Shown here in pieces: positions 4,751-20,040 of a stretch of DNA of 20,040 nucleotides. Position numbers and translations under genes: made by a program. Source of the stretch: a virus (lineage: Duplodnaviria; Heunggongvirae; Uroviricota; Caudoviricetes). The stretch is taken from the IMG/VR virus record IMGVR_UViG_2667527582_000006; one strand, 5' to 3'. Each line of letters starts with the position of its first letter. Within the stretch, counting starts at the first letter, position 1. The notes beneath the pieces were generated by a model that had not been told where the DNA came from, did no database searches, and saw only the letters and a program-made list of their open reading frames with translations.

Positions 4751-4808
4751 AAAAAGGGCGGCAGAGCAGTCACGGAGTAAAACTGATACCGCCAAACGTC
4801 ACCAGAAA
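4751..4808 (-). ncRNA. dicF: DicF small regulatory RNA
   Basis: Minus-strand sequence UUUCUGGUGACGUUUGGCGGUAUCAGUUUUACUCCGUGACUGCUCUGCCGCCCUUUUU matches remembered DicF, with a 3' U-tract; sits between ydfC and dicB as in Qin. Confidence 0.7.
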
Positions 4809-10484: not shown

Positions 10485-10629
10485 ATACAGCGAACGCCAT
10501 TGGTTTAGTTGGATATTTACTGTGCCGGACAAAAACGGTTTGCGGGGAAATCTTAGTTAAGTAGAATGACTGCGGGTGCTTGAGGCTATCTGTCTCAGGC
10601 ATGAACACCAAAAGGCAGATAGAGAAAAG

Positions 10630-10693
10630 CCCCAGTTAACATTACGCGTCCTGCAAGACGCTTAACATTAATCTGAGGCCATATCTATGCGAC
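10630..10693 (-). ncRNA. Putative Sok-like antisense RNA of the hok locus (extent approximate)
   Basis: Minus-strand promoter-like TTGACC (10729-10724), 18-nt spacer, TAATCT (10705-10700); the transcript would be antisense to the leader-ORF start region, as in hok/sok. Confidence 0.3.
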
Positions 10694-10746
10694 ACATAGA
10701 GATTAGCCTCTTACGGACCGAAAGGTCAAGGAGAAGCAGGCTATGA
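10687..10746 (+). CDS. Putative mok-like leader ORF (19 codons), translationally coupled to hok
   Basis: ATG at 10687; stop TGA overlaps the hok ATG (cuAUGA). Confidence 0.3.
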   Translation: MRHIEISLLRTERSRRSRL

Positions 10747-11345: not shown

Positions 11346-12395
11346 GTGCGGGTATTACTTCGACCTGTTCTGGTACCGGAACTCGGGGTGGTGATCGTTA
11401 AGCCGGGCCGTGAATCCATGCCGGTATTCCACAATACCCGGGTACTGGTGGAGCCGGAACCGAAAAGCATGCGTAATCTGCCGTCCGGGGTCGTTCCTGC
11501 CGTTCGCCAGCCGCTGGTGGAAGACAAAACATTGCTGCCGTTTTTCAGTAACGCACGGGTGATTCGTGCTGCTGGTGGTGCTGGTGCATTGTCTGACTGG
11601 CTGTTGCGCCATATTAAATCCTGCCAGTGGCCACACGGCGATTATCACCACAGTGAAACCGTCATTCACCGTTATGGTACCGGCGCAATGGTGTTGTGCT
11701 GGCACTGCGACAACCAGCTGCGTGACCAGACATCCGAATCACTCGAGCAACTTGCTCATCAAAACCTGTCAGCATGGATGATTGACGTCATCGGTCACGC
11801 AATAAGCGGTACGCAGGAGCGTGAATTATCTCTGGCTGAATTATCCTGGTGGGCGGTCCGAAATCAGGTGGCGGATGCGCTACCTGAAGCGGTATTACGT
11901 CGCTCGCTGGGATTACCAGCGGAAAAAATCCGCTCAATGTACCGCGAAAGCGACATCGTACCGGGAGAGCAGACCGCCACCAGCATATTGAAACAGCGCA
12001 CAAAAAATCTTGCACTGTTGCCTCACGCCCACCAGGAACAACACCCACTACAGGAAAGGACGGTGGTAAGCATCACCGTTGATCCTGAGTCTCCGGAATC
12101 TTTCATGAAGCTACCTAAACGTCGCCGCTGGGTTAAGGAGAAATACACTCGCTGGGTGAAGACACAGCCGTGTGCTTGCTGCGGTATGCCAGCCGACGAT
12201 CCGCATCATCTGATTGGTCACGGGCAGGGCGGAATGGGAACCAAAGCACATGATCTTTTTGTGTTGCCTTTATGCAGAAAGCATCACGACGAACTGCATA
12301 CGGATACCGTGGCATTTGAAGAGAAGTATGGCTCCCAACTGGAGCTGATTTTTCGATTTATCGATCACGCGCTGGCAATTGGTGTGCTGGCCTAA
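11346..12395 (+). CDS. ydfU: DUF968-family prophage protein (YdfU-like, 349 aa) with C-terminal Cys/His-rich HNH-like segment
   Basis: GTG start with GGAGG SD; C-terminal CACCGMPADDPHHLIGHGQGGMGTKAHDLFVLPLCRKHHDELH; size and position match remembered ydfU. Confidence 0.7.
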   Translation: MRVLLRPVLVPELGVVIVKPGRESMPVFHNTRVLVEPEPKSMRNLPSGVVPAVRQPLVEDKTLLPFFSNARVIRAAGGAGALSDWLLRHIKSCQWPHGDYHHSETVIHRYGTGAMVLCWHCDNQLRDQTSESLEQLAHQNLSAWMIDVIGHAISGTQERELSLAELSWWAVRNQVADALPEAVLRRSLGLPAEKIRSMYRESDIVPGEQTATSILKQRTKNLALLPHAHQEQHPLQERTVVSITVDPESPESFMKLPKRRRWVKEKYTRWVKTQPCACCGMPADDPHHLIGHGQGGMGTKAHDLFVLPLCRKHHDELHTDTVAFEEKYGSQLELIFRFIDHALAIGVLA

Positions 12396-12412
12396 TTTTG
12401 TGGAGTAAGTTG

Positions 12413-12459
12413 ATGCGTGATATTCAGATGGTTCTTGAGCGTTGGGGAGCGTGGGCGGC
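12413..12459 (+). CDS. Antitermination protein Q-like, N-terminal fragment only (truncated by the assembly gap)
   Basis: MRDIQMVLERWGAWA... with GGAG SD; reading frame runs into the N tract. Confidence 0.5.
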
Positions 12460-12469
12460 NNNNNNNNNN
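12460..12469. other. Assembly gap (10 N)
   Basis: Run of n characters in the sequence. Confidence 0.97.
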
Positions 12470-12481
12470 AATTCATATCAA

Positions 12482-12506
12482 CGGACCTCCACGGAGGTCC
12501 GTTTTT
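12482..12506 (+). terminator. Rho-independent terminator-like hairpin just right of the gap
   Basis: CGGACCTCC / GGAGGTCCG perfect inverted repeat followed by TTTTT. Confidence 0.6.
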
Positions 12507-12665
12507 GCATTCTAAGCCCGCCAAAACCAACATTCCTACAATCCCTTAACTCCACCCAACTCAATCAACTTCAACCCGCATCAAGTCCCTTGCGAGGGTA
12601 CAACTGAGGGTATAGTCTGATTCGATAAAATTTATACCCCTTTTTACTATCAGGAGATACCGCCA

Positions 12666-13928
12666 ATGGCGCTCACTGACGCTAAAATCCGTGCCGCTAA
12701 ACCGGATGAAAAACCTTATAAACTTGCCGACAGCGGCAACATGTTCTTGCTCGTTCACCCTAACGGCTCTCGCTACTGGCGGCTCCGCTATCGGTTTCTG
12801 GGCAAAGAGAAAACGCTCGCTCTGGGGGTCTATCCTGAAGTCTCGTTATCAGAAGCAAGGGAAAAACGCGATACGGCGAGAAAGCTGATAGCTGAGGGAA
12901 CTGACCCATGCGAACAGAAAAGGATCAAAAAGTCGGTACCCGAAACAGCTCAGACATTTGAAGGCATCGCAAGACAGTGGCATAAGAGCAACAAAAAATG
13001 GTCAGCCTCACACAATGAGAGGATACTGAAAAGCCTCGAAACTCATGTTTTCCCCTTTATTGGTTCACGTGACATTACCACCCTCAGGACTCCCGATTTA
13101 CTTGTTCCCGTTAAAGCAGCCGAAGCAAAGGAGATATATGAAATCGCAGCGCGCCTTCAGCAGCGTATCACTGCAATCATGCGCTATGCTGCCCAGTCAG
13201 GCATTATCACCTATAACCCTGCCTTGGATATGGCTGGCGCGTTAACCACAGTGAAACGCCAGCACCGCCCTGCCCTCGCCTTAAATCGCATTTCAGAGCT
13301 TCTTGAACGACTGGATGCCTACAGAGGACAACCTCTCACCCGGCAGGCAACTAAACTCACCCTGCTTATCTTCATCCGTTCCAGCGAACTACGCTTTGCC
13401 AGGTGGTCTGAGATCGACTTCAAGAAAGCCATGTGGACCATTCCTCCTGAGCGGAAACCTATTGAAGGGGTCAAGTATTCCCATCGTGGCTCAAAAATGC
13501 GAACAGAGCATCTTGTGCCACTATCTACTCAGGCGGTGAATATACTGAAGCAGATCCACACTATCAGCGGAGAACATGAACTGATTTTCACCGGCGATCA
13601 CAATCCATGGAAACCCATGAGTGAGAACACTGTAAATAACGCACTGCGTCTGATGGGCTATGATACAAAGGTCGATGTCTGTGGTCACGGCTTCCGGGCA
13701 ATGGCCTGTAGTTCGTTGATTGAGTCAGGTCTTTGGTCCAGAGATGCGGTAGAACGGCAGATGAGCCATATGGAACGCAATTCGGTGAGGGCGGCGTATA
13801 TTCATAAAGCGGAACATCTGGATGAGCGCAAGCTGATGTTGCAGTGGTGGGCTGATTTTCTGGATGCCAATCGGGAAAGGGGAATTACGCCGTTTGACTA
13901 TGCGAAGATCAACCGGGGTAATATGTAG
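12666..13928 (+). CDS. P4-type (CP4-like) tyrosine integrase
   Basis: 420 aa; N-terminal MALTDAKIRAAKPDEKPYKLADSGNMFLLVHPNGSRYWRLRYRF arm-binding signature; C-terminal HGFRAM...RAAY catalytic motifs; AGGAGA SD. Confidence 0.85.
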   Translation: MALTDAKIRAAKPDEKPYKLADSGNMFLLVHPNGSRYWRLRYRFLGKEKTLALGVYPEVSLSEAREKRDTARKLIAEGTDPCEQKRIKKSVPETAQTFEGIARQWHKSNKKWSASHNERILKSLETHVFPFIGSRDITTLRTPDLLVPVKAAEAKEIYEIAARLQQRITAIMRYAAQSGIITYNPALDMAGALTTVKRQHRPALALNRISELLERLDAYRGQPLTRQATKLTLLIFIRSSELRFARWSEIDFKKAMWTIPPERKPIEGVKYSHRGSKMRTEHLVPLSTQAVNILKQIHTISGEHELIFTGDHNPWKPMSENTVNNALRLMGYDTKVDVCGHGFRAMACSSLIESGLWSRDAVERQMSHMERNSVRAAYIHKAEHLDERKLMLQWWADFLDANRERGITPFDYAKINRGNM

Positions 13929-13946
13929 CATATGTGTTTAAATATA

Positions 13947-13988
13947 TTAGCTCAGATTTGATCTGACACAGCTCTGGCACAGAGCTAA
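13947..13988. repeat. Nested palindromic element downstream of the integrase
   Basis: TTAGCTC...GAGCTAA outer arms enclosing TCAGAT-ttg-ATCTGA and AGCTCTG-gca-CAGAGCT. Confidence 0.4.
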
Positions 13989-14095
13989 ACCTAATCTGCA
14001 GGCAGCTCTGTTCCATAGGCGGAAGTTTATCTTTGTAGCCTAGATGCCAGTTAGGAAGAAAATAGAGACAGGAAAGATGATGACTAAATCAGTCT

Positions 14096-14118
14096 CCCAC
14101 CCGCACTGTGCGGGTGGG
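14096..14118. repeat. GC-rich hairpin (9-bp stem CCCACCCGC / GCGGGTGGG), possible terminator in the convergent intergenic region
   Basis: Perfect inverted repeat with 5-nt loop; lies between the convergent integrase and MTase genes. Confidence 0.35.
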
Positions 14119-14458
14119 ATATGTCTTTCCGAGAGAATACCGGCGGCAGCGAGCATCGTTAATTTTAGCTACAAAAGCTGTCCGGAGATGGCGGGTCAAG
14201 ATCAGTCGGAAGATCTCTAAAAGTGGATGGGCCGTTTTGCTGGGATTCTTAGATTGGCAAAAAAGTGGTGAAGCCATCAGATAGGAAGTGGATGGCGCAG
14301 TATTCAGTCTAACACTGAGGAATATTGTGATAATGAAAAGGCTACATATGTAGTGATGTGATTTACTCCCATAGCAAACGCAAACTGTGGCAGTATTACA
14401 TTGGCTGCTTCAGGAAAGGGGGCATCACATCACGACATTTTCTTCCACTGCAGGGTCA

Positions 14459-15775
14459 TTAGCCTGCTGTTCGCTCCAGACCCTGGTTCTTACCAGCCAG
14501 TATTTCGGCTTTTTTCATAGTTTCGACCAACTGTTCCGAGACAGCACGGATGACATTCATGCAGACAGAGTTGCCAAATTGCTTGTAGATCTGGCCCTGT
14601 GAAACAGCATCGACGATGTAGTCGTCAGGGAATCCCTGTAGACGTGCACATTCGCGCGGAGTTAGCTTGCGTGGGTTCCTACCCAAATGTGACTGGTCAA
14701 TCAGGATTTCGGAGCCGTCCTTGTAATAACGTGCACTGATGGTATTAGTGTATTCGCTGTCCTTGTTGAAAAGAGAATAGCCGAAACCGTTACCTTTCTT
14801 TTCGTGTTCCAGTTTCCGTTTCTGGTGGCCTATCCACAGTCTATCCGAGATGGTATATCTGTCTTGTGATAGAGGCAGACGATCGAGGTCTTCCAGAATG
14901 TCACCAACACGGGTCGGAGTCATAGGAGGTACCGGCCATCTGAATACACTGTCGAAATCCACGCCCCTATAATAGTCACGGTCAAAACCAACGATGAAAA
15001 TACGTTCACGGTTCTGGGGGGCACCGAAGTCACCTGCACGCAGTACACGGTAATCAACCCAGTAATTGAGTTTTTCGGACAGAGCATTGCGGGCATCCTC
15101 ACTAATCGGGATATCGTCCGGAACGGAATGGGTTCCATTGCCCCGCAGGATATCGAGAATGGTTTTCAGGGTACGACCCTTATCATGTCCCTGCAGTTGC
15201 TTGACATTTTCCAACATGAATGCCTTTGGACGCTTGGCTGTCATTATCCGCTGAATTTCGAAGAACATGGTTCCACGGGTATCGCTGAAACCTTTTTTCA
15301 AACCGGCCTGTGAAAAAGCCTGGCATGGAAATCCGCCAAGCAGTACATCGTGATCAGGAATGTCGGATGCCGGAATTCTAGTGATGTCACCTTGGGGCAT
15401 TTCGCCGAAATTCGTTAGATAGGTCTTCTGGGAGAACTTGTCCCATTCGGATGAGAATACACAGTGCCCTCCCTGCTGCTGATAAGGAAGACGAATACCT
15501 CCGATACCAGCAAACAGATCGATGAAGGTGAAATTGCATTCATTTTCAGGCTTCTGGCGGAAAGGTGCGTTTTCCAGATATTCAGTCATCTTCTTTTCCA
15601 CATCGAGAATGGCCTGCCATTTGGCGGAAGACGGTTCATGTTCCTCTTCTTCCCATCCTCGGACTGTACGTTCTCCGGTGGCACCGAGTCCGAGAAGATT
15701 GGCAAATTCGGTGCGACCTATGCCTAATTTTTTTCTCATATTTTTGATATATTGGAATTTATTCTTACTGTCCAT
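14459..15775 (-). CDS. DNA (cytosine-5)-methyltransferase, Dcm/EcoRII/SsoII family, with N-terminal HTH regulatory extension
   Basis: Motif I FIDLFAGIGG, motif IV GGFPCQAFS, ENV, QNRERIFIVG, TISARYYKDGSEILID, TPRECARLQGFPDDY; N-terminal GIGRTEFANLLGLGATGERTVRGWEEEE HTH-like segment. Confidence 0.9.
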   Translation of the reverse strand: MDSKNKFQYIKNMRKKLGIGRTEFANLLGLGATGERTVRGWEEEEHEPSSAKWQAILDVEKKMTEYLENAPFRQKPENECNFTFIDLFAGIGGIRLPYQQQGGHCVFSSEWDKFSQKTYLTNFGEMPQGDITRIPASDIPDHDVLLGGFPCQAFSQAGLKKGFSDTRGTMFFEIQRIMTAKRPKAFMLENVKQLQGHDKGRTLKTILDILRGNGTHSVPDDIPISEDARNALSEKLNYWVDYRVLRAGDFGAPQNRERIFIVGFDRDYYRGVDFDSVFRWPVPPMTPTRVGDILEDLDRLPLSQDRYTISDRLWIGHQKRKLEHEKKGNGFGYSLFNKDSEYTNTISARYYKDGSEILIDQSHLGRNPRKLTPRECARLQGFPDDYIVDAVSQGQIYKQFGNSVCMNVIRAVSEQLVETMKKAEILAGKNQGLERTAG

Positions 15776-15887
15776 CCCATGCTCACCTTATCCGGTTTTA
15801 TTCCCGGCGATAGTATCACTGTACGGATGATCAATCAATGAGGGGGTCTCATGTCTATCGACATTTCTGGGCATAGTCCGAATCTTT

Positions 15888-17162
15888 TCAGACTGTAAAA
15901 ATTTCGCGGGTCAGTTCTACCAGCTTTTCTCCTGTTGAATACAGCCGAAGTAGTTCTAGGGGATCCTGGTAATGGCAATGAATCGGCGGATATTCGGACA
16001 GACAGTCAGCTTCTGTAACCAGAACCTTTCCCCTTTCCGCAACATGGACAGCCCTGAGTGGCTTTTCTGTTCCAGGAAAAATGAAATGGTTTGTGATGTG
16101 GGTACCGACCGGCACTAGGTAAGAAAGCGCCTTCTGGTAGAAAAACTGTTTTACCAGATCCGGCCAACCAGGAGCACTATCCGGTGTCTTCGCATCATAG
16201 TATTTGGCATCTATGATCGCGACGTGCGTTTTTTCTGCATTGTGGAGAACCGTATCCGTTCTCTGGCTCTTGTTGGCAACGGGAACAAACCTGTCACTGC
16301 CGGCCCGATACACGGGAATAGGCAATTTATTGTTAACTCGGTATTTACCCACCAAGCATTCATCCAGCATGGCTTCCCACAGACTGTGAAACTTCCTGAC
16401 ACCGATAAGAACCCCGCCATTCCGCATTCCTCTCCCTGTTTCAAGATACATGATCAGTCTCCGCAAAAGGAAAATATCCCTTTCGGAATAGCTGAACTGC
16501 AGTTCTCTTCTTAGGTGTACAACCCATGAGAAAACATTTCCCTCAGGACGCGGAACATTCTGCAGTCGTTCAGGAGTGCCCTGACTGCCTGTCCAGAGCA
16601 TTCCGTATACCGGATAGAGCTCCCTCATTACAGAGGCATGAATCTTTGCTGTCTCGCTATCGGTGAGGTAGCGCGAACGTGTGGTTACAGGATCGATATA
16701 TACAGGCCCAGATGGGCTAGTATAGGCAGTCCCTCGGGCAATTGTCTCCGGCCATACAACTTTTCCGGAGTTGGTTGTATCGACTCTAATCCGGCGGACA
16801 TAGAGACCATTCGTCTGATAGTCGTCAATCAGTGCAGTTGCCAACGACAGGGATTCACCACCGATAAGTCCGGTTCCTGCATCCCCATCAAAAACACCGG
16901 TGTCTCTATCTCGGTAGAATTTCAGGAGTGAGCGGAGCAGATAATGTGCTGAAAGAGCCTGCGATTCACGAGAAGAACTGTTATTTCGTGGCAGAAATAC
17001 AGCCAGACCTCCACTGAAAGACATGACTCCACAGAAATGGATTTTCTGCATGTCGGGGGCCAGCAGCCCCCTGTTTCTCAGCTCATCGAGCACGGTCGCA
17101 GGAATACTGCGATCGGTGACAGGTGTCCTGTCTGAAAGATACAGAATATCAGCTGGCAACAT
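15888..17162 (-). CDS. McrC-like PD-(D/E)xK nuclease subunit
   Basis: 424 aa; C-terminal HVAIIDAKYY matching the (D/E)xK catalytic core; start overlaps the upstream AAA+ gene by 14 nt. Confidence 0.7.
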   Translation of the reverse strand: MLPADILYLSDRTPVTDRSIPATVLDELRNRGLLAPDMQKIHFCGVMSFSGGLAVFLPRNNSSSRESQALSAHYLLRSLLKFYRDRDTGVFDGDAGTGLIGGESLSLATALIDDYQTNGLYVRRIRVDTTNSGKVVWPETIARGTAYTSPSGPVYIDPVTTRSRYLTDSETAKIHASVMRELYPVYGMLWTGSQGTPERLQNVPRPEGNVFSWVVHLRRELQFSYSERDIFLLRRLIMYLETGRGMRNGGVLIGVRKFHSLWEAMLDECLVGKYRVNNKLPIPVYRAGSDRFVPVANKSQRTDTVLHNAEKTHVAIIDAKYYDAKTPDSAPGWPDLVKQFFYQKALSYLVPVGTHITNHFIFPGTEKPLRAVHVAERGKVLVTEADCLSEYPPIHCHYQDPLELLRLYSTGEKLVELTREIFTV

Positions 17163-19089
17163 CTTGCGGATCCCTGTTCATGTCAACAGGAGTGCCCACC
17201 CCTTCAAGTCTGTTCTCTACGGCAGTGGAGAAAACAGCCATGTCATTGCGAAATGCTGCAGATAGGTTGCCGAACGTTCTGAAGGTAGACGCAAATATTT
17301 TCTGGTGTCCGACATGTCTCAGCACATCATCCCACAAATAGATGAACAGTTTTCCGCCAAGGGCAGCTTTCGCTGCTTCCCTATTTTCCAGTTCTTTAGA
17401 ATCTAGGAAAAACGGGCCGATCAGACGATCCTCTGCTATTTCACATTCGACAAGGGTGTCATTAATAATTTGAGCAAAATCGCGCCAGAGTACCGAATAT
17501 TTTCCTGAATTGGTGGTGAAAACGATTTCGGTTTGTGGGATCTCCGGTTTTGATAAATCGATTGGTAGATATTCGAAATTCCAGCGCCGTTTGAATGCAG
17601 TATCCAGCGGCATAACTGCCTGATCACTGCTGTTCATGGTAGCCAGTAGAGACATATTGGACGGGATCCGTAAGCTATCGACAGGAGTACATCCCATAGT
17701 ACCTAGTTCCGTATTTATATACTCGATCATATCCGGATCAGTGGCATTGATGCTGTAGGTACTCGTTCCATCAGGCTCCCTGTCTAGAAGCTGGAAAAGC
17801 TCGCCGAAGACAGCTGCAGCAGAAGCACGGTTGATTTCTTCGATAATGAGACAGACCTTTCTGTCTGGACGAGCAATGGCCAGTATGAGTGCGCAGGTAA
17901 AGGGGCCTGGTCTGAAACTGTAGGTTATGCTGCTTTCTCCCTGTTCATTCTTTTCCATTTTAGGCTTCAGGGCACCGACAAAATCGTTATGCTGAGTATC
18001 AGGATGGAAAACTGTGACAATCTTTTCTGCACCGTCACTCATTTCACCATGGACCCTGTAGCTTTTTCCCGTACCGGGTGCCCCATAGAAGATTCTGTTC
18101 GTTCCACCGGTCACTCTAGGTCCGGATACGGAGGCTCTGGTCGATGACTCGAAAAAGAACTTGCCCTCTCTGTTCCGGATACTCATCCCCAGCCATAAAC
18201 CGGAAACCAGAACCGATATTTTTTCAAGTGAATCGGGAGTATCCAAGAGACCCTTTCTGATGAAAATATATTTCTCCAGCGGAACAGAAAAATGGACGGG
18301 ATTCTGGACATACAGCGCATTGCCGGGTTCCCTGGATGGGCGGAGAAGAAATGCCCTGTCTATATCATTCCATGAAACAAATTCGGCATCGGGGTCAGTC
18401 CCCAGTAAAGGCTCAAACTGACCGGACCAGCCAATGGTTGTCATTATTCTGAACAGCAGTTCATCCCCATCAGGAACACTGAACATATAAGGAAGACTGG
18501 GCATATATCTCCTTTGAAGGTAATCATATGTTTCTTGAGAACGCACCAGATCAAGAATCAGGGTACCGAGTGTTTCCGAGCTTACATTCGGGACCGGCAA
18601 TGATGCCAGCAAGACCGATTTGACAAAATCATCGGATTGCCTATAACTCTTTTTCCCAGTTTTTGAGCTCGTGTTTATTAGATTTTTTGCCTCAAGTCTT
18701 GTTCTGGGATCTTTGAAAGCCCAGAAAAAGTTACTGCGGCTGTAGATGTCCAGCGAAACGAGCGCCTGCTCGTTTGACGTTCCGCTTTCGATCATTGCTT
18801 CGAATTCTGCCGGAAACATATTTTTTTTGATTTCTTCGAATACAGAGATGTAGTTGTCCAGTAGTCTTACAAATGGCCCAATCTTTAGCATATACATCAG
18901 ATACTGGCATGGTATATAACAGTGATACCCGCTTCCAGTTTTCATCCGTGCTGTATGGTCCAGCAATGTCAGTCCGGTTGTTGATAGAACCGTTCTTGTT
19001 TCATCATCGAATCCGATCTCATCGAATTGCCATGCCGATTCAGGTTCATTTTTGAACCAGTTCATCACCATATCCAGTTCTGAAAGCAT
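17149..19089 (-). CDS. McrB-like AAA+ (AAA_5) NTPase with about 330-aa uncharacterised N-terminal domain
   Basis: Walker A GAPGTGKS; Walker B/McrB signature LIIEEINRASAAAVFGELFQLLDR; NxxD-like MNSSD; N-terminal 330 aa without recognisable motif. Confidence 0.75.
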   Translation of the reverse strand: MLSELDMVMNWFKNEPESAWQFDEIGFDDETRTVLSTTGLTLLDHTARMKTGSGYHCYIPCQYLMYMLKIGPFVRLLDNYISVFEEIKKNMFPAEFEAMIESGTSNEQALVSLDIYSRSNFFWAFKDPRTRLEAKNLINTSSKTGKKSYRQSDDFVKSVLLASLPVPNVSSETLGTLILDLVRSQETYDYLQRRYMPSLPYMFSVPDGDELLFRIMTTIGWSGQFEPLLGTDPDAEFVSWNDIDRAFLLRPSREPGNALYVQNPVHFSVPLEKYIFIRKGLLDTPDSLEKISVLVSGLWLGMSIRNREGKFFFESSTRASVSGPRVTGGTNRIFYGAPGTGKSYRVHGEMSDGAEKIVTVFHPDTQHNDFVGALKPKMEKNEQGESSITYSFRPGPFTCALILAIARPDRKVCLIIEEINRASAAAVFGELFQLLDREPDGTSTYSINATDPDMIEYINTELGTMGCTPVDSLRIPSNMSLLATMNSSDQAVMPLDTAFKRRWNFEYLPIDLSKPEIPQTEIVFTTNSGKYSVLWRDFAQIINDTLVECEIAEDRLIGPFFLDSKELENREAAKAALGGKLFIYLWDDVLRHVGHQKIFASTFRTFGNLSAAFRNDMAVFSTAVENRLEGVGTPVDMNRDPQDVAS

Positions 19090-19116
19090 ACTTGTCCCGT
19101 CCTTGCATGAGAAAAA

Positions 19117-20040
19117 TTAGTCATACTTGATCCAGAGATTTCTGGATATTGTCTGTCGCATGTTTTCAATAAATTTCTTGTTCTGGTCCGAAAACTGAGA
19201 GTTTTCATACTGCCCCATAAAAAACAGCAATTCGGCCAGTGCACAGCCCTGGTCTTTCGCCTGATTTTTCATCACGGGATGTTCAGTATTGATGGTAATG
19301 AAATGATCGTCCCCGTAACCAGGTTCCCACAATGAACCGTCGGCTGTTTTACCGAAACGAATATCGATGTCGTCAGGAGCAGTCATCATTACCCTAAATC
19401 TAGGCAGATTGCCGCTTTTTCCAGAAAACAGGAGCCTAAATTCGAGTAGGGCATTGAATATGATAGCCAAGGCATCACTGAAACCTGAACGGTAAATATT
19501 ATAACGGTCGGCAATGATATTACCGAACATGTCAGTATTGTCCTGCCCGATGGTGTCACATCCCTGAATGTTGTTCACCAGATCCTTTACCGGACTCGGC
19601 ATGAATAGACGGGCATACTTTTTCCCTTGGTGAGCAAGCGATTTTGCGATCCTATCACCGGAAAACCTGAACTCTGAAAGGCCCAGAAGCTCCGCGATTT
19701 CATATATCATACGGACAATTCTGCAATTTTCAGGCAGATGTTCATCCACCCACGTGGACAGTGCTGGTATTTCCGCTTTAAGCTTGTCGGTTGGAAGATT
19801 TGTCACTTCCAGCCCGAAGGTACTCTCGAATGACTCTTTTTCGCTGAAAACGGCAGCGCTTGCTGCTACCTGATAAACAAAATCTGCAATTATCAGATCT
19901 GATTCATCGAATATTCGATTGAACAGGTCAATCGGCAACGGAATCCTGTTCTGCCAGAAAATCAGTCCATCTACCCTGTAACTGTGGTTTTTGTCGTAAA
20001 GGTAACGTTTGAAATCGGCCAGATCGTATTCATAATTCAT
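19117..20040 (-). CDS. Hypothetical protein (307 aa), first gene of the McrBC-like/MTase cluster
   Basis: ORF begins with ATG exactly at the window edge and ends 27 nt upstream of the McrB-like start; no motif recognised. Confidence 0.5.
   Translation of the reverse strand: MNYEYDLADFKRYLYDKNHSYRVDGLIFWQNRIPLPIDLFNRIFDESDLIIADFVYQVAASAAVFSEKESFESTFGLEVTNLPTDKLKAEIPALSTWVDEHLPENCRIVRMIYEIAELLGLSEFRFSGDRIAKSLAHQGKKYARLFMPSPVKDLVNNIQGCDTIGQDNTDMFGNIIADRYNIYRSGFSDALAIIFNALLEFRLLFSGKSGNLPRFRVMMTAPDDIDIRFGKTADGSLWEPGYGDDHFITINTEHPVMKNQAKDQGCALAELLFFMGQYENSQFSDQNKKFIENMRQTISRNLWIKYD

Follow-up and report, generated by a model that had tools for sequence, protein, structure and literature searches.

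Organization of the window and the left-hand contig

The window, by which we mean the whole stretch of 20,040 nucleotides that was analysed, was compared with record JRSG01000018.1 of assembly GCA_001413685.1 and matched it with 0 mismatches in 17,375 bases. This record is a 2.8-Mb pseudo-scaffold in which contigs are strung together with 10-N spacers, and one of these spacers occupies positions 12460-12469 of the window, where it joins two unrelated contigs and stands in the place of a tRNA-Phe gene that went unassembled. The right-hand contig begins at position 12470, and 196 bp (12470-12665) lie between the spacer and the ATG of a 420-aa open reading frame (12666-13928) encoding a P4-type integrase, which is followed by a 530-bp spacer and by a cluster of genes on the minus strand. 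An earlier note on this DNA, made by reading the letters only, had reported that no tRNA is visible in the 196 bp between the gap and the integrase, and our searches agree: ARAGORN found no tRNA and no tmRNA in the entire window, and Rfam, applied to the window at gathering thresholds and then to positions 12300-14500 at E<=1, returned nothing tRNA-like. Both programs detected tRNA-Phe in a gap-free relative.

The left-hand contig (1-12459) is a Rac/Qin-like lambdoid prophage unrelated to the island that begins at 12470. It carries a DicF RNA (4756-4807, minus strand), a hok/sok module with sok at 10574-10745, and ydfU (Pfam DUF968; 11346-12395), the open reading frame upstream of an antiterminator Q gene of which the first 47 nt (MRDIQMVLERWGAWA...; 12413-12459, plus strand) are present, outside the island, before the contig ends. 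Annotations of this stretch in complete E. coli genomes give ydfU (DUF968) and, after it, an antiterminator Q family protein, and the Q-gene stretch is multi-copy, occupying a median of 2 and a maximum of 8 places in each genome. Two of the sister loci (L003 and L011) have contigs to the left of the same N-run that finish in IS1 terminal sequences. The contig ends examined here all coincide with repeat boundaries, which suggests that the assembler breaks at every repeat. The 10-N joins in this assembly series say nothing about adjacency.

The integrase

The product of the 420-aa open reading frame (12666-13928, plus strand) is a tyrosine integrase of the P4 type, and specifically of the intP4 type that occurs at pheU and pheV. 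Three Pfam domains scored above their gathering thresholds, Arm-DNA-bind_3 (PF13356, 2.9e-28), Phage_int_M (PF22022, 1.3e-25) and Phage_integrase (PF00589, 9.6e-19), giving the three-domain architecture in which an arm-type DNA-binding domain at the N terminus and a SAM-like domain in the middle precede the catalytic domain at the C terminus. The integrase of satellite phage P4 shares these three domains, and a tblastn comparison with it gave 57.1% identity over residues 1-408 (E = 6e-152, 97% of the length), while the alignment of the two proteins gave 56% identity. The assignment to the P4 family made in the earlier note is therefore directly supported by the three Pfam domains and by the likeness to P4 Int. 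Residues R238 (in RSSELR), K277, H341-x-x-R344 (in HGFR), H368 and Y378 (in AAYIH), which we take to be the catalytic residues of a tyrosine recombinase (R, K, H-x-x-R, H, Y), are identical in the aligned P4 Int. The protein may catalyse site-specific integration and excision, as is characteristic of its family. At the DNA level, the gene is 99% identical to integrase genes adjoining tRNA-Phe in complete genomes, and this likeness to other tRNA-Phe islands extends as far as position 13877, ending approximately 50 bp before the int stop codon.

The 196 bp upstream of the integrase

The first island-side sequence (12470-12507, plus strand) is a tRNA-Phe 3' trailer with an intrinsic terminator, lying next to what would be the attL core. 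The terminator hairpin noticed by the earlier reader in this interval is well defined, with a stem at 12480-12503 followed by a T run, a folding energy of −17.6 kcal/mol (z = −5.96), and none of 200 shuffled sequences as stable. The first 37 nt, comprising the trailer and terminator, do not vary among intP4 alleles that share only approximately 70% identity in the remaining spacer, and they accompany the island at both pheU and pheV. The same terminator lies 3' of pheU in strain K-12 with 1 mismatch in 37 nt, and a different terminator follows the island-free pheV of K-12. Taken alone, the 37-nt stretch is found in most E. coli genomes.

A repeat search further identified two tandem 12-bp units, GAGGGTAcaact and GAGGGTAtagtc (12594-12612, plus strand), as candidate arm-type Int sites, and an inverted copy, TATACCC (12633-12639, minus strand; GGGTATA on the other strand), as a candidate third arm-type site near the start of int. 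The GGGTA core of the first unit is invariant across diverged alleles, that of the second unit reads GGGCA in one of seven sequences, and the ACCC portion of the inverted copy is conserved across diverged alleles. In the annotated attP of phage P4, an inverted arm repeat is likewise found at the start of int, and two tandem 12-bp repeats lie approximately 113 bp from the core. By analogy with P4, the GAGGGTA repeats and their inverted copy are likely arm-type sites for the N-terminal domain of the integrase, and these candidate sites may overlap the int leader.

The spacer and the cargo genes

The spacer between int and the cargo (13929-14458, 530 bp), which falls within the interval given in the earlier note, holds the end fragment of an IS3-family element and a hairpin. 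Approximately 108 bp of it (14097-14204) match, at about 89% identity, the 3' terminus of a degenerate IS3-family element that more than 500 genomes contain, and a strong hairpin with an 11-bp stem lies at 14095-14119. The spacer looks like a mosaic junction, and the 46-aa open reading frame that other assemblies call within it is probably spurious.

The cargo is a defence-like cluster, with all of its genes in the window on the minus strand. A C-5 cytosine DNA methyltransferase (14459-15775; Pfam DNA_methylase, E = 1e-94; PADLOC MTase_II; NCBIfam dcm) is followed by a LlaJI-type restriction endonuclease subunit (15888-17162; Pfam RE_LlaJI, E = 6e-32), by an McrB-like AAA_5 NTPase subunit of a LlaJI-type system (17149-19089; Pfam AAA_5, PADLOC REase_II and a weak McrB match), and by a 307-aa protein (19117-20040) that matched no family in Pfam, PADLOC or NCBIfam. 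Beyond the window (L028:6559-10004), the source scaffold continues with an MzaB-like HATPase and then an SNF2 helicase resembling ZorD or DpdE. At megablast sensitivity the cargo was absent from 5,426 complete E. coli genomes, in which only small IS-related fragments matched, and the same cargo recurs in many draft assemblies. In relatives, the island goes on with a CP4-like backbone of YagK/YfjJ, AlpA and a YeeP-like GTPase, and copies of IS3 or IS66 are present, as the IS3-end fragment is in the spacer of the window. The same integrase allele is accompanied by other cargo in strains S1 and CP53, indicating that the cargo is variable and mosaic.

Gap-free copies of the island adjoin tRNA-Phe

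The island part of the window (12470-20040, 7,571 bp) recurs with 0-2 mismatches in many other assemblies. In every gap-free copy that we examined, the CCA of tRNA-Phe immediately precedes the base matching position 12470 of the window. Five of these loci, all free of Ns (L005, L007, L009, L012 and L034), contain the full 76-nt tRNA-Phe gene ending one base before the island, and the genes upstream are yjdC-dsbD-cutA-dcuA-aspA, which identifies the site as pheU. In an NCTC genome (L017), the island lies 3' of pheV and adjoins yqgA. Thus, the integrase gene stands immediately 3' of tRNA-Phe in five identical islands at pheU and in one at pheV. Related sequences in complete E. coli genomes are arranged in the same way, with a 99% identical sequence directly 3' of pheU beside dicD/yjdC-dsbD in strain S1 and a 90% identical sequence directly 3' of pheV beside yqgA in strain G5. 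Every related copy for which we inspected the upstream flank had a tRNA-Phe 3' end to its left.

Sister assemblies of the same accession series showed where the break falls when the gene is not assembled through. In two of them (JRSD and JRRZ), the island contig opens with the last 58 and 62 nt of tRNA-Phe, respectively, so that the 10 Ns sit 58 or 62 nt further upstream than in the window. In three others (JRRS, JRSB and JRRM), the 10 Ns agree with the window in position to the base, at the CCA end, and each has an unrelated left neighbour: an IS1 end by yghJ in JRRS, chaA in JRSB, and an IS1 end by tRNA-Gly in JRRM. Altogether, six different left neighbours were found among six sister assemblies. 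We therefore rejected the left-hand contig as the holder of the attachment site, given its prophage content (DicF, hok/sok, ydfU and Q) and the differing neighbours in the six sisters, and the adjacency that the window displays across the Ns is biologically meaningless.

The earlier note had offered three places for the attachment site, namely the gap, the left-hand contig, or a site outside any tRNA gene. The first is the one that stood, since the CCA of tRNA-Phe lies directly to the left in every gap-free copy. The second fails, as that contig is an unrelated lambdoid prophage and the sisters differ to the left of the same Ns, and the third found no support. The note had also said that a tRNA or ssrA 3' end immediately to the left would make this an ordinary tRNA-associated island, and a tRNA 3' end is what lies there in assemblies with the identical island.

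The contig breaks at the end of the pheU/pheV repeat

In strain K-12, a 94-bp sequence that opens 18 nt before the tRNA and closes with its CCA is the same in pheU and pheV, which diverge at the first base past the CCA. An assembler working from short reads is unable to pass through this repeat, and position 12470, where the right-hand contig begins, is exactly where unique sequence resumes. The tRNA-Phe gene is thus unseen in the window because the assembler broke at the repeat and the submitter joined the contigs by 10 Ns.

Attachment site sequences

In intP4 islands, the integrase gene lies immediately 3' of tRNA-Phe, the final 23 bp of the tRNA form attL, and attR is a repeat of 19-23 bp at the far end, which approximately one third of GI-pheV islands do not have (PMC11537424). 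For insertions at pheU and pheV, repeats of 22 bp have been described (PMC6174562). The terminal 23-mer of tRNA-Phe, TTCGATTCCGAGTCCGGGCACCA, is absent from the window and is present directly to the left of the island in all gap-free copies, and we therefore infer that the attL core, made up of the final 22-23 nt of tRNA-Phe, is in the unassembled DNA just to the left of position 12470. A search of the window for a second copy of the tRNA-Phe 3' end that could serve as attR, with up to 3 substitutions allowed, gave none, and a search with up to 5 edits of the 46 fetched loci, which stop short of the far end of the source island, gave attL copies only. Strains S1 (at pheU) and CP53 (at pheV), which carry a 99% identical int allele, have no attR repeat, and the far ends of their islands are truncated by IS1 beside yjdJ and gss.

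The distal junction of the source scaffold

At the distal end of the island, the source scaffold runs from the SNF2 gene across a single IS3, with no intervening Ns, into a leuX remnant followed by ahr-yjgR-lptG (L028:3520-6565). This N-free IS3 junction, seen likewise at L025 and L020:1-2300, occurs in two sister assemblies, JRRS and JRRN. Genomes such as LD39-1 contain the IS3-leuX segment at 100% identity, with the same IS3 preceding fimG, and JRRN, which has the IS3 junction, is also contiguous with pheU-yjdC. The leuX-IS3-island topology is either the joint of a tandem duplication of approximately 134 kb, from pheU to leuX, or, more probably, a mis-join by the assembler through IS3. Since the junction reflects a mis-join or a rearrangement in either case, the local context in the source strain is not fully trustworthy. 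We consider it unlikely that the leuX-IS3 junction is real, whether as an IS3-mediated tandem duplication of approximately 134 kb between pheU and leuX or as another rearrangement, in which case the island would lie at the new joint and have an unusual context in this lineage, and, as a separate matter, that the cargo is an undescribed composite defence system; neither of these readings would imply a non-tRNA site for the integrase.

Discussion

We conclude with high confidence that positions 12470-20040 are the integrase-proximal end of an island at the 3' end of a tRNA-Phe gene, and that the gene is hidden by a contig break that the repeat caused. The adjacency itself is observed directly in identical islands of other assemblies, sisters of the same accession series among them, and for the source strain it is predicted from those islands. 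According to this model, the island would have integrated at the 3' end of the tRNA-Phe gene, the assembler would have broken the contig at the boundary of the pheU/pheV repeat, and an unrelated prophage contig would have been set to its left across 10 Ns. In the source strain, the tRNA-Phe gene would then run straight into the island sequence AATTCATATCAACGG, and crossover would presumably have taken place within the last 22-23 nt of the gene. The 196 bp before int would be the island's own arm, which would supply the tRNA with its trailer and intrinsic terminator, and the 12-bp GAGGGTA pair that comes next, together with the inverted copy, may be bound by the N-terminal domain of the integrase, as the attP of P4 suggests. 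The site in the source strain is most probably pheU, beside yjdC(dicD)-dsbD, rather than pheV, because five of the identical islands are at pheU and one is at pheV.

One alternative is that islands have accreted in tandem, so that this island abuts a partial copy of tRNA-Phe and another element, e.g., an ICE of the SPI-7 type, lies between it and the intact gene. Such an arrangement exists in E. coli strain CM IVRI KOL-1 (NZ_CP033158.1, 1611000-1623000; L037 and L045), where the terminator and a related intP4 stand behind no more than the final 51 nt of tRNA-Phe, and where ParA, DnaB-PI and ParB of an SPI-7-type island lie upstream. We considered this partial tRNA as a counter-example to the association with tRNA-Phe and rejected it as such, as it represents tandem accretion behind an SPI-7-type ICE. 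For the island studied here, tandem accretion is very unlikely: five gap-free identical islands have the full-length tRNA-Phe with yjdC-dsbD upstream, and the JRSD and JRRZ contigs retain 58 and 62 nt of the gene, more than the 51 nt present in KOL-1. Even under tandem accretion the island would still be tRNA-Phe-associated, although separated from the functional gene. That the integrase module has instead moved off the tRNA, whether through a rearrangement mediated by IS elements or through integration at a secondary site outside any tRNA, so that the missing tRNA is real, is extremely improbable, for although the N-free IS3 junction of the source scaffold to the leuX region indicates that rearrangements or mis-joins occur around the island, the contig begins at the exact base where the pheU/pheV repeat ends, which is the signature of a repeat-induced break, the break falls at that base in three sister assemblies and inside the tRNA in two, JRRN has the same IS3 junction and is nevertheless contiguous with pheU-yjdC, and all related copies with an inspected flank have a tRNA-Phe 3' end on the left.

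The island placed at tRNA-Phe in this way resembles the GI-pheV and GI-pheU islands of E. coli, in which intP4 also lies approximately 196 bp 3' of tRNA-Phe behind the same terminator hairpin, the cargo is also mosaic and rich in IS elements, and the int allele is 99% identical in complete genomes. It differs from them in its combination of a LlaJI-type restriction-modification system, an MzaB-like ATPase and an SNF2 helicase, cargo that megablast did not find in the 5,426 complete genomes. Compared with that of satellite phage P4, the integrase shows 57% identity across 97% of its length and aligned catalytic motifs, and the attP-like layout corresponds, with a core, an interval of approximately 110-125 bp, two tandem 12-bp arm repeats, and an inverted repeat near the start of int. 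However, P4 targets leuX (tRNA-Leu) and the island targets tRNA-Phe, the arm motif is GAGGGTA in the island and TGGGGGCAT in P4, and the part of the island that is seen is without the replication or helper-exploitation genes of P4. At the pheU locus of K-12, the same trailer and terminator are followed by a decayed int leader and 5' end (the yjdQ pseudogene; L023:692-854), so that K-12 retains a pseudogene remnant only, whereas here the integrase is intact and accompanied by cargo. Even the "empty" pheU site of K-12 therefore bears the scar of an island.

Overall, the island is of an ordinary, already known kind, the P4-type island associated with tRNA-Phe. Features that span the 10-N joins of this assembly series should not be interpreted, and a tRNA gene missing at such a gap is no evidence for a new attachment site and carries little biological weight. 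An integrase without a visible tRNA at the edge of a draft contig or at a run of Ns is instead the expected sign of a tRNA gene, here one of the identical pheU/pheV pair, collapsed as a repeat.
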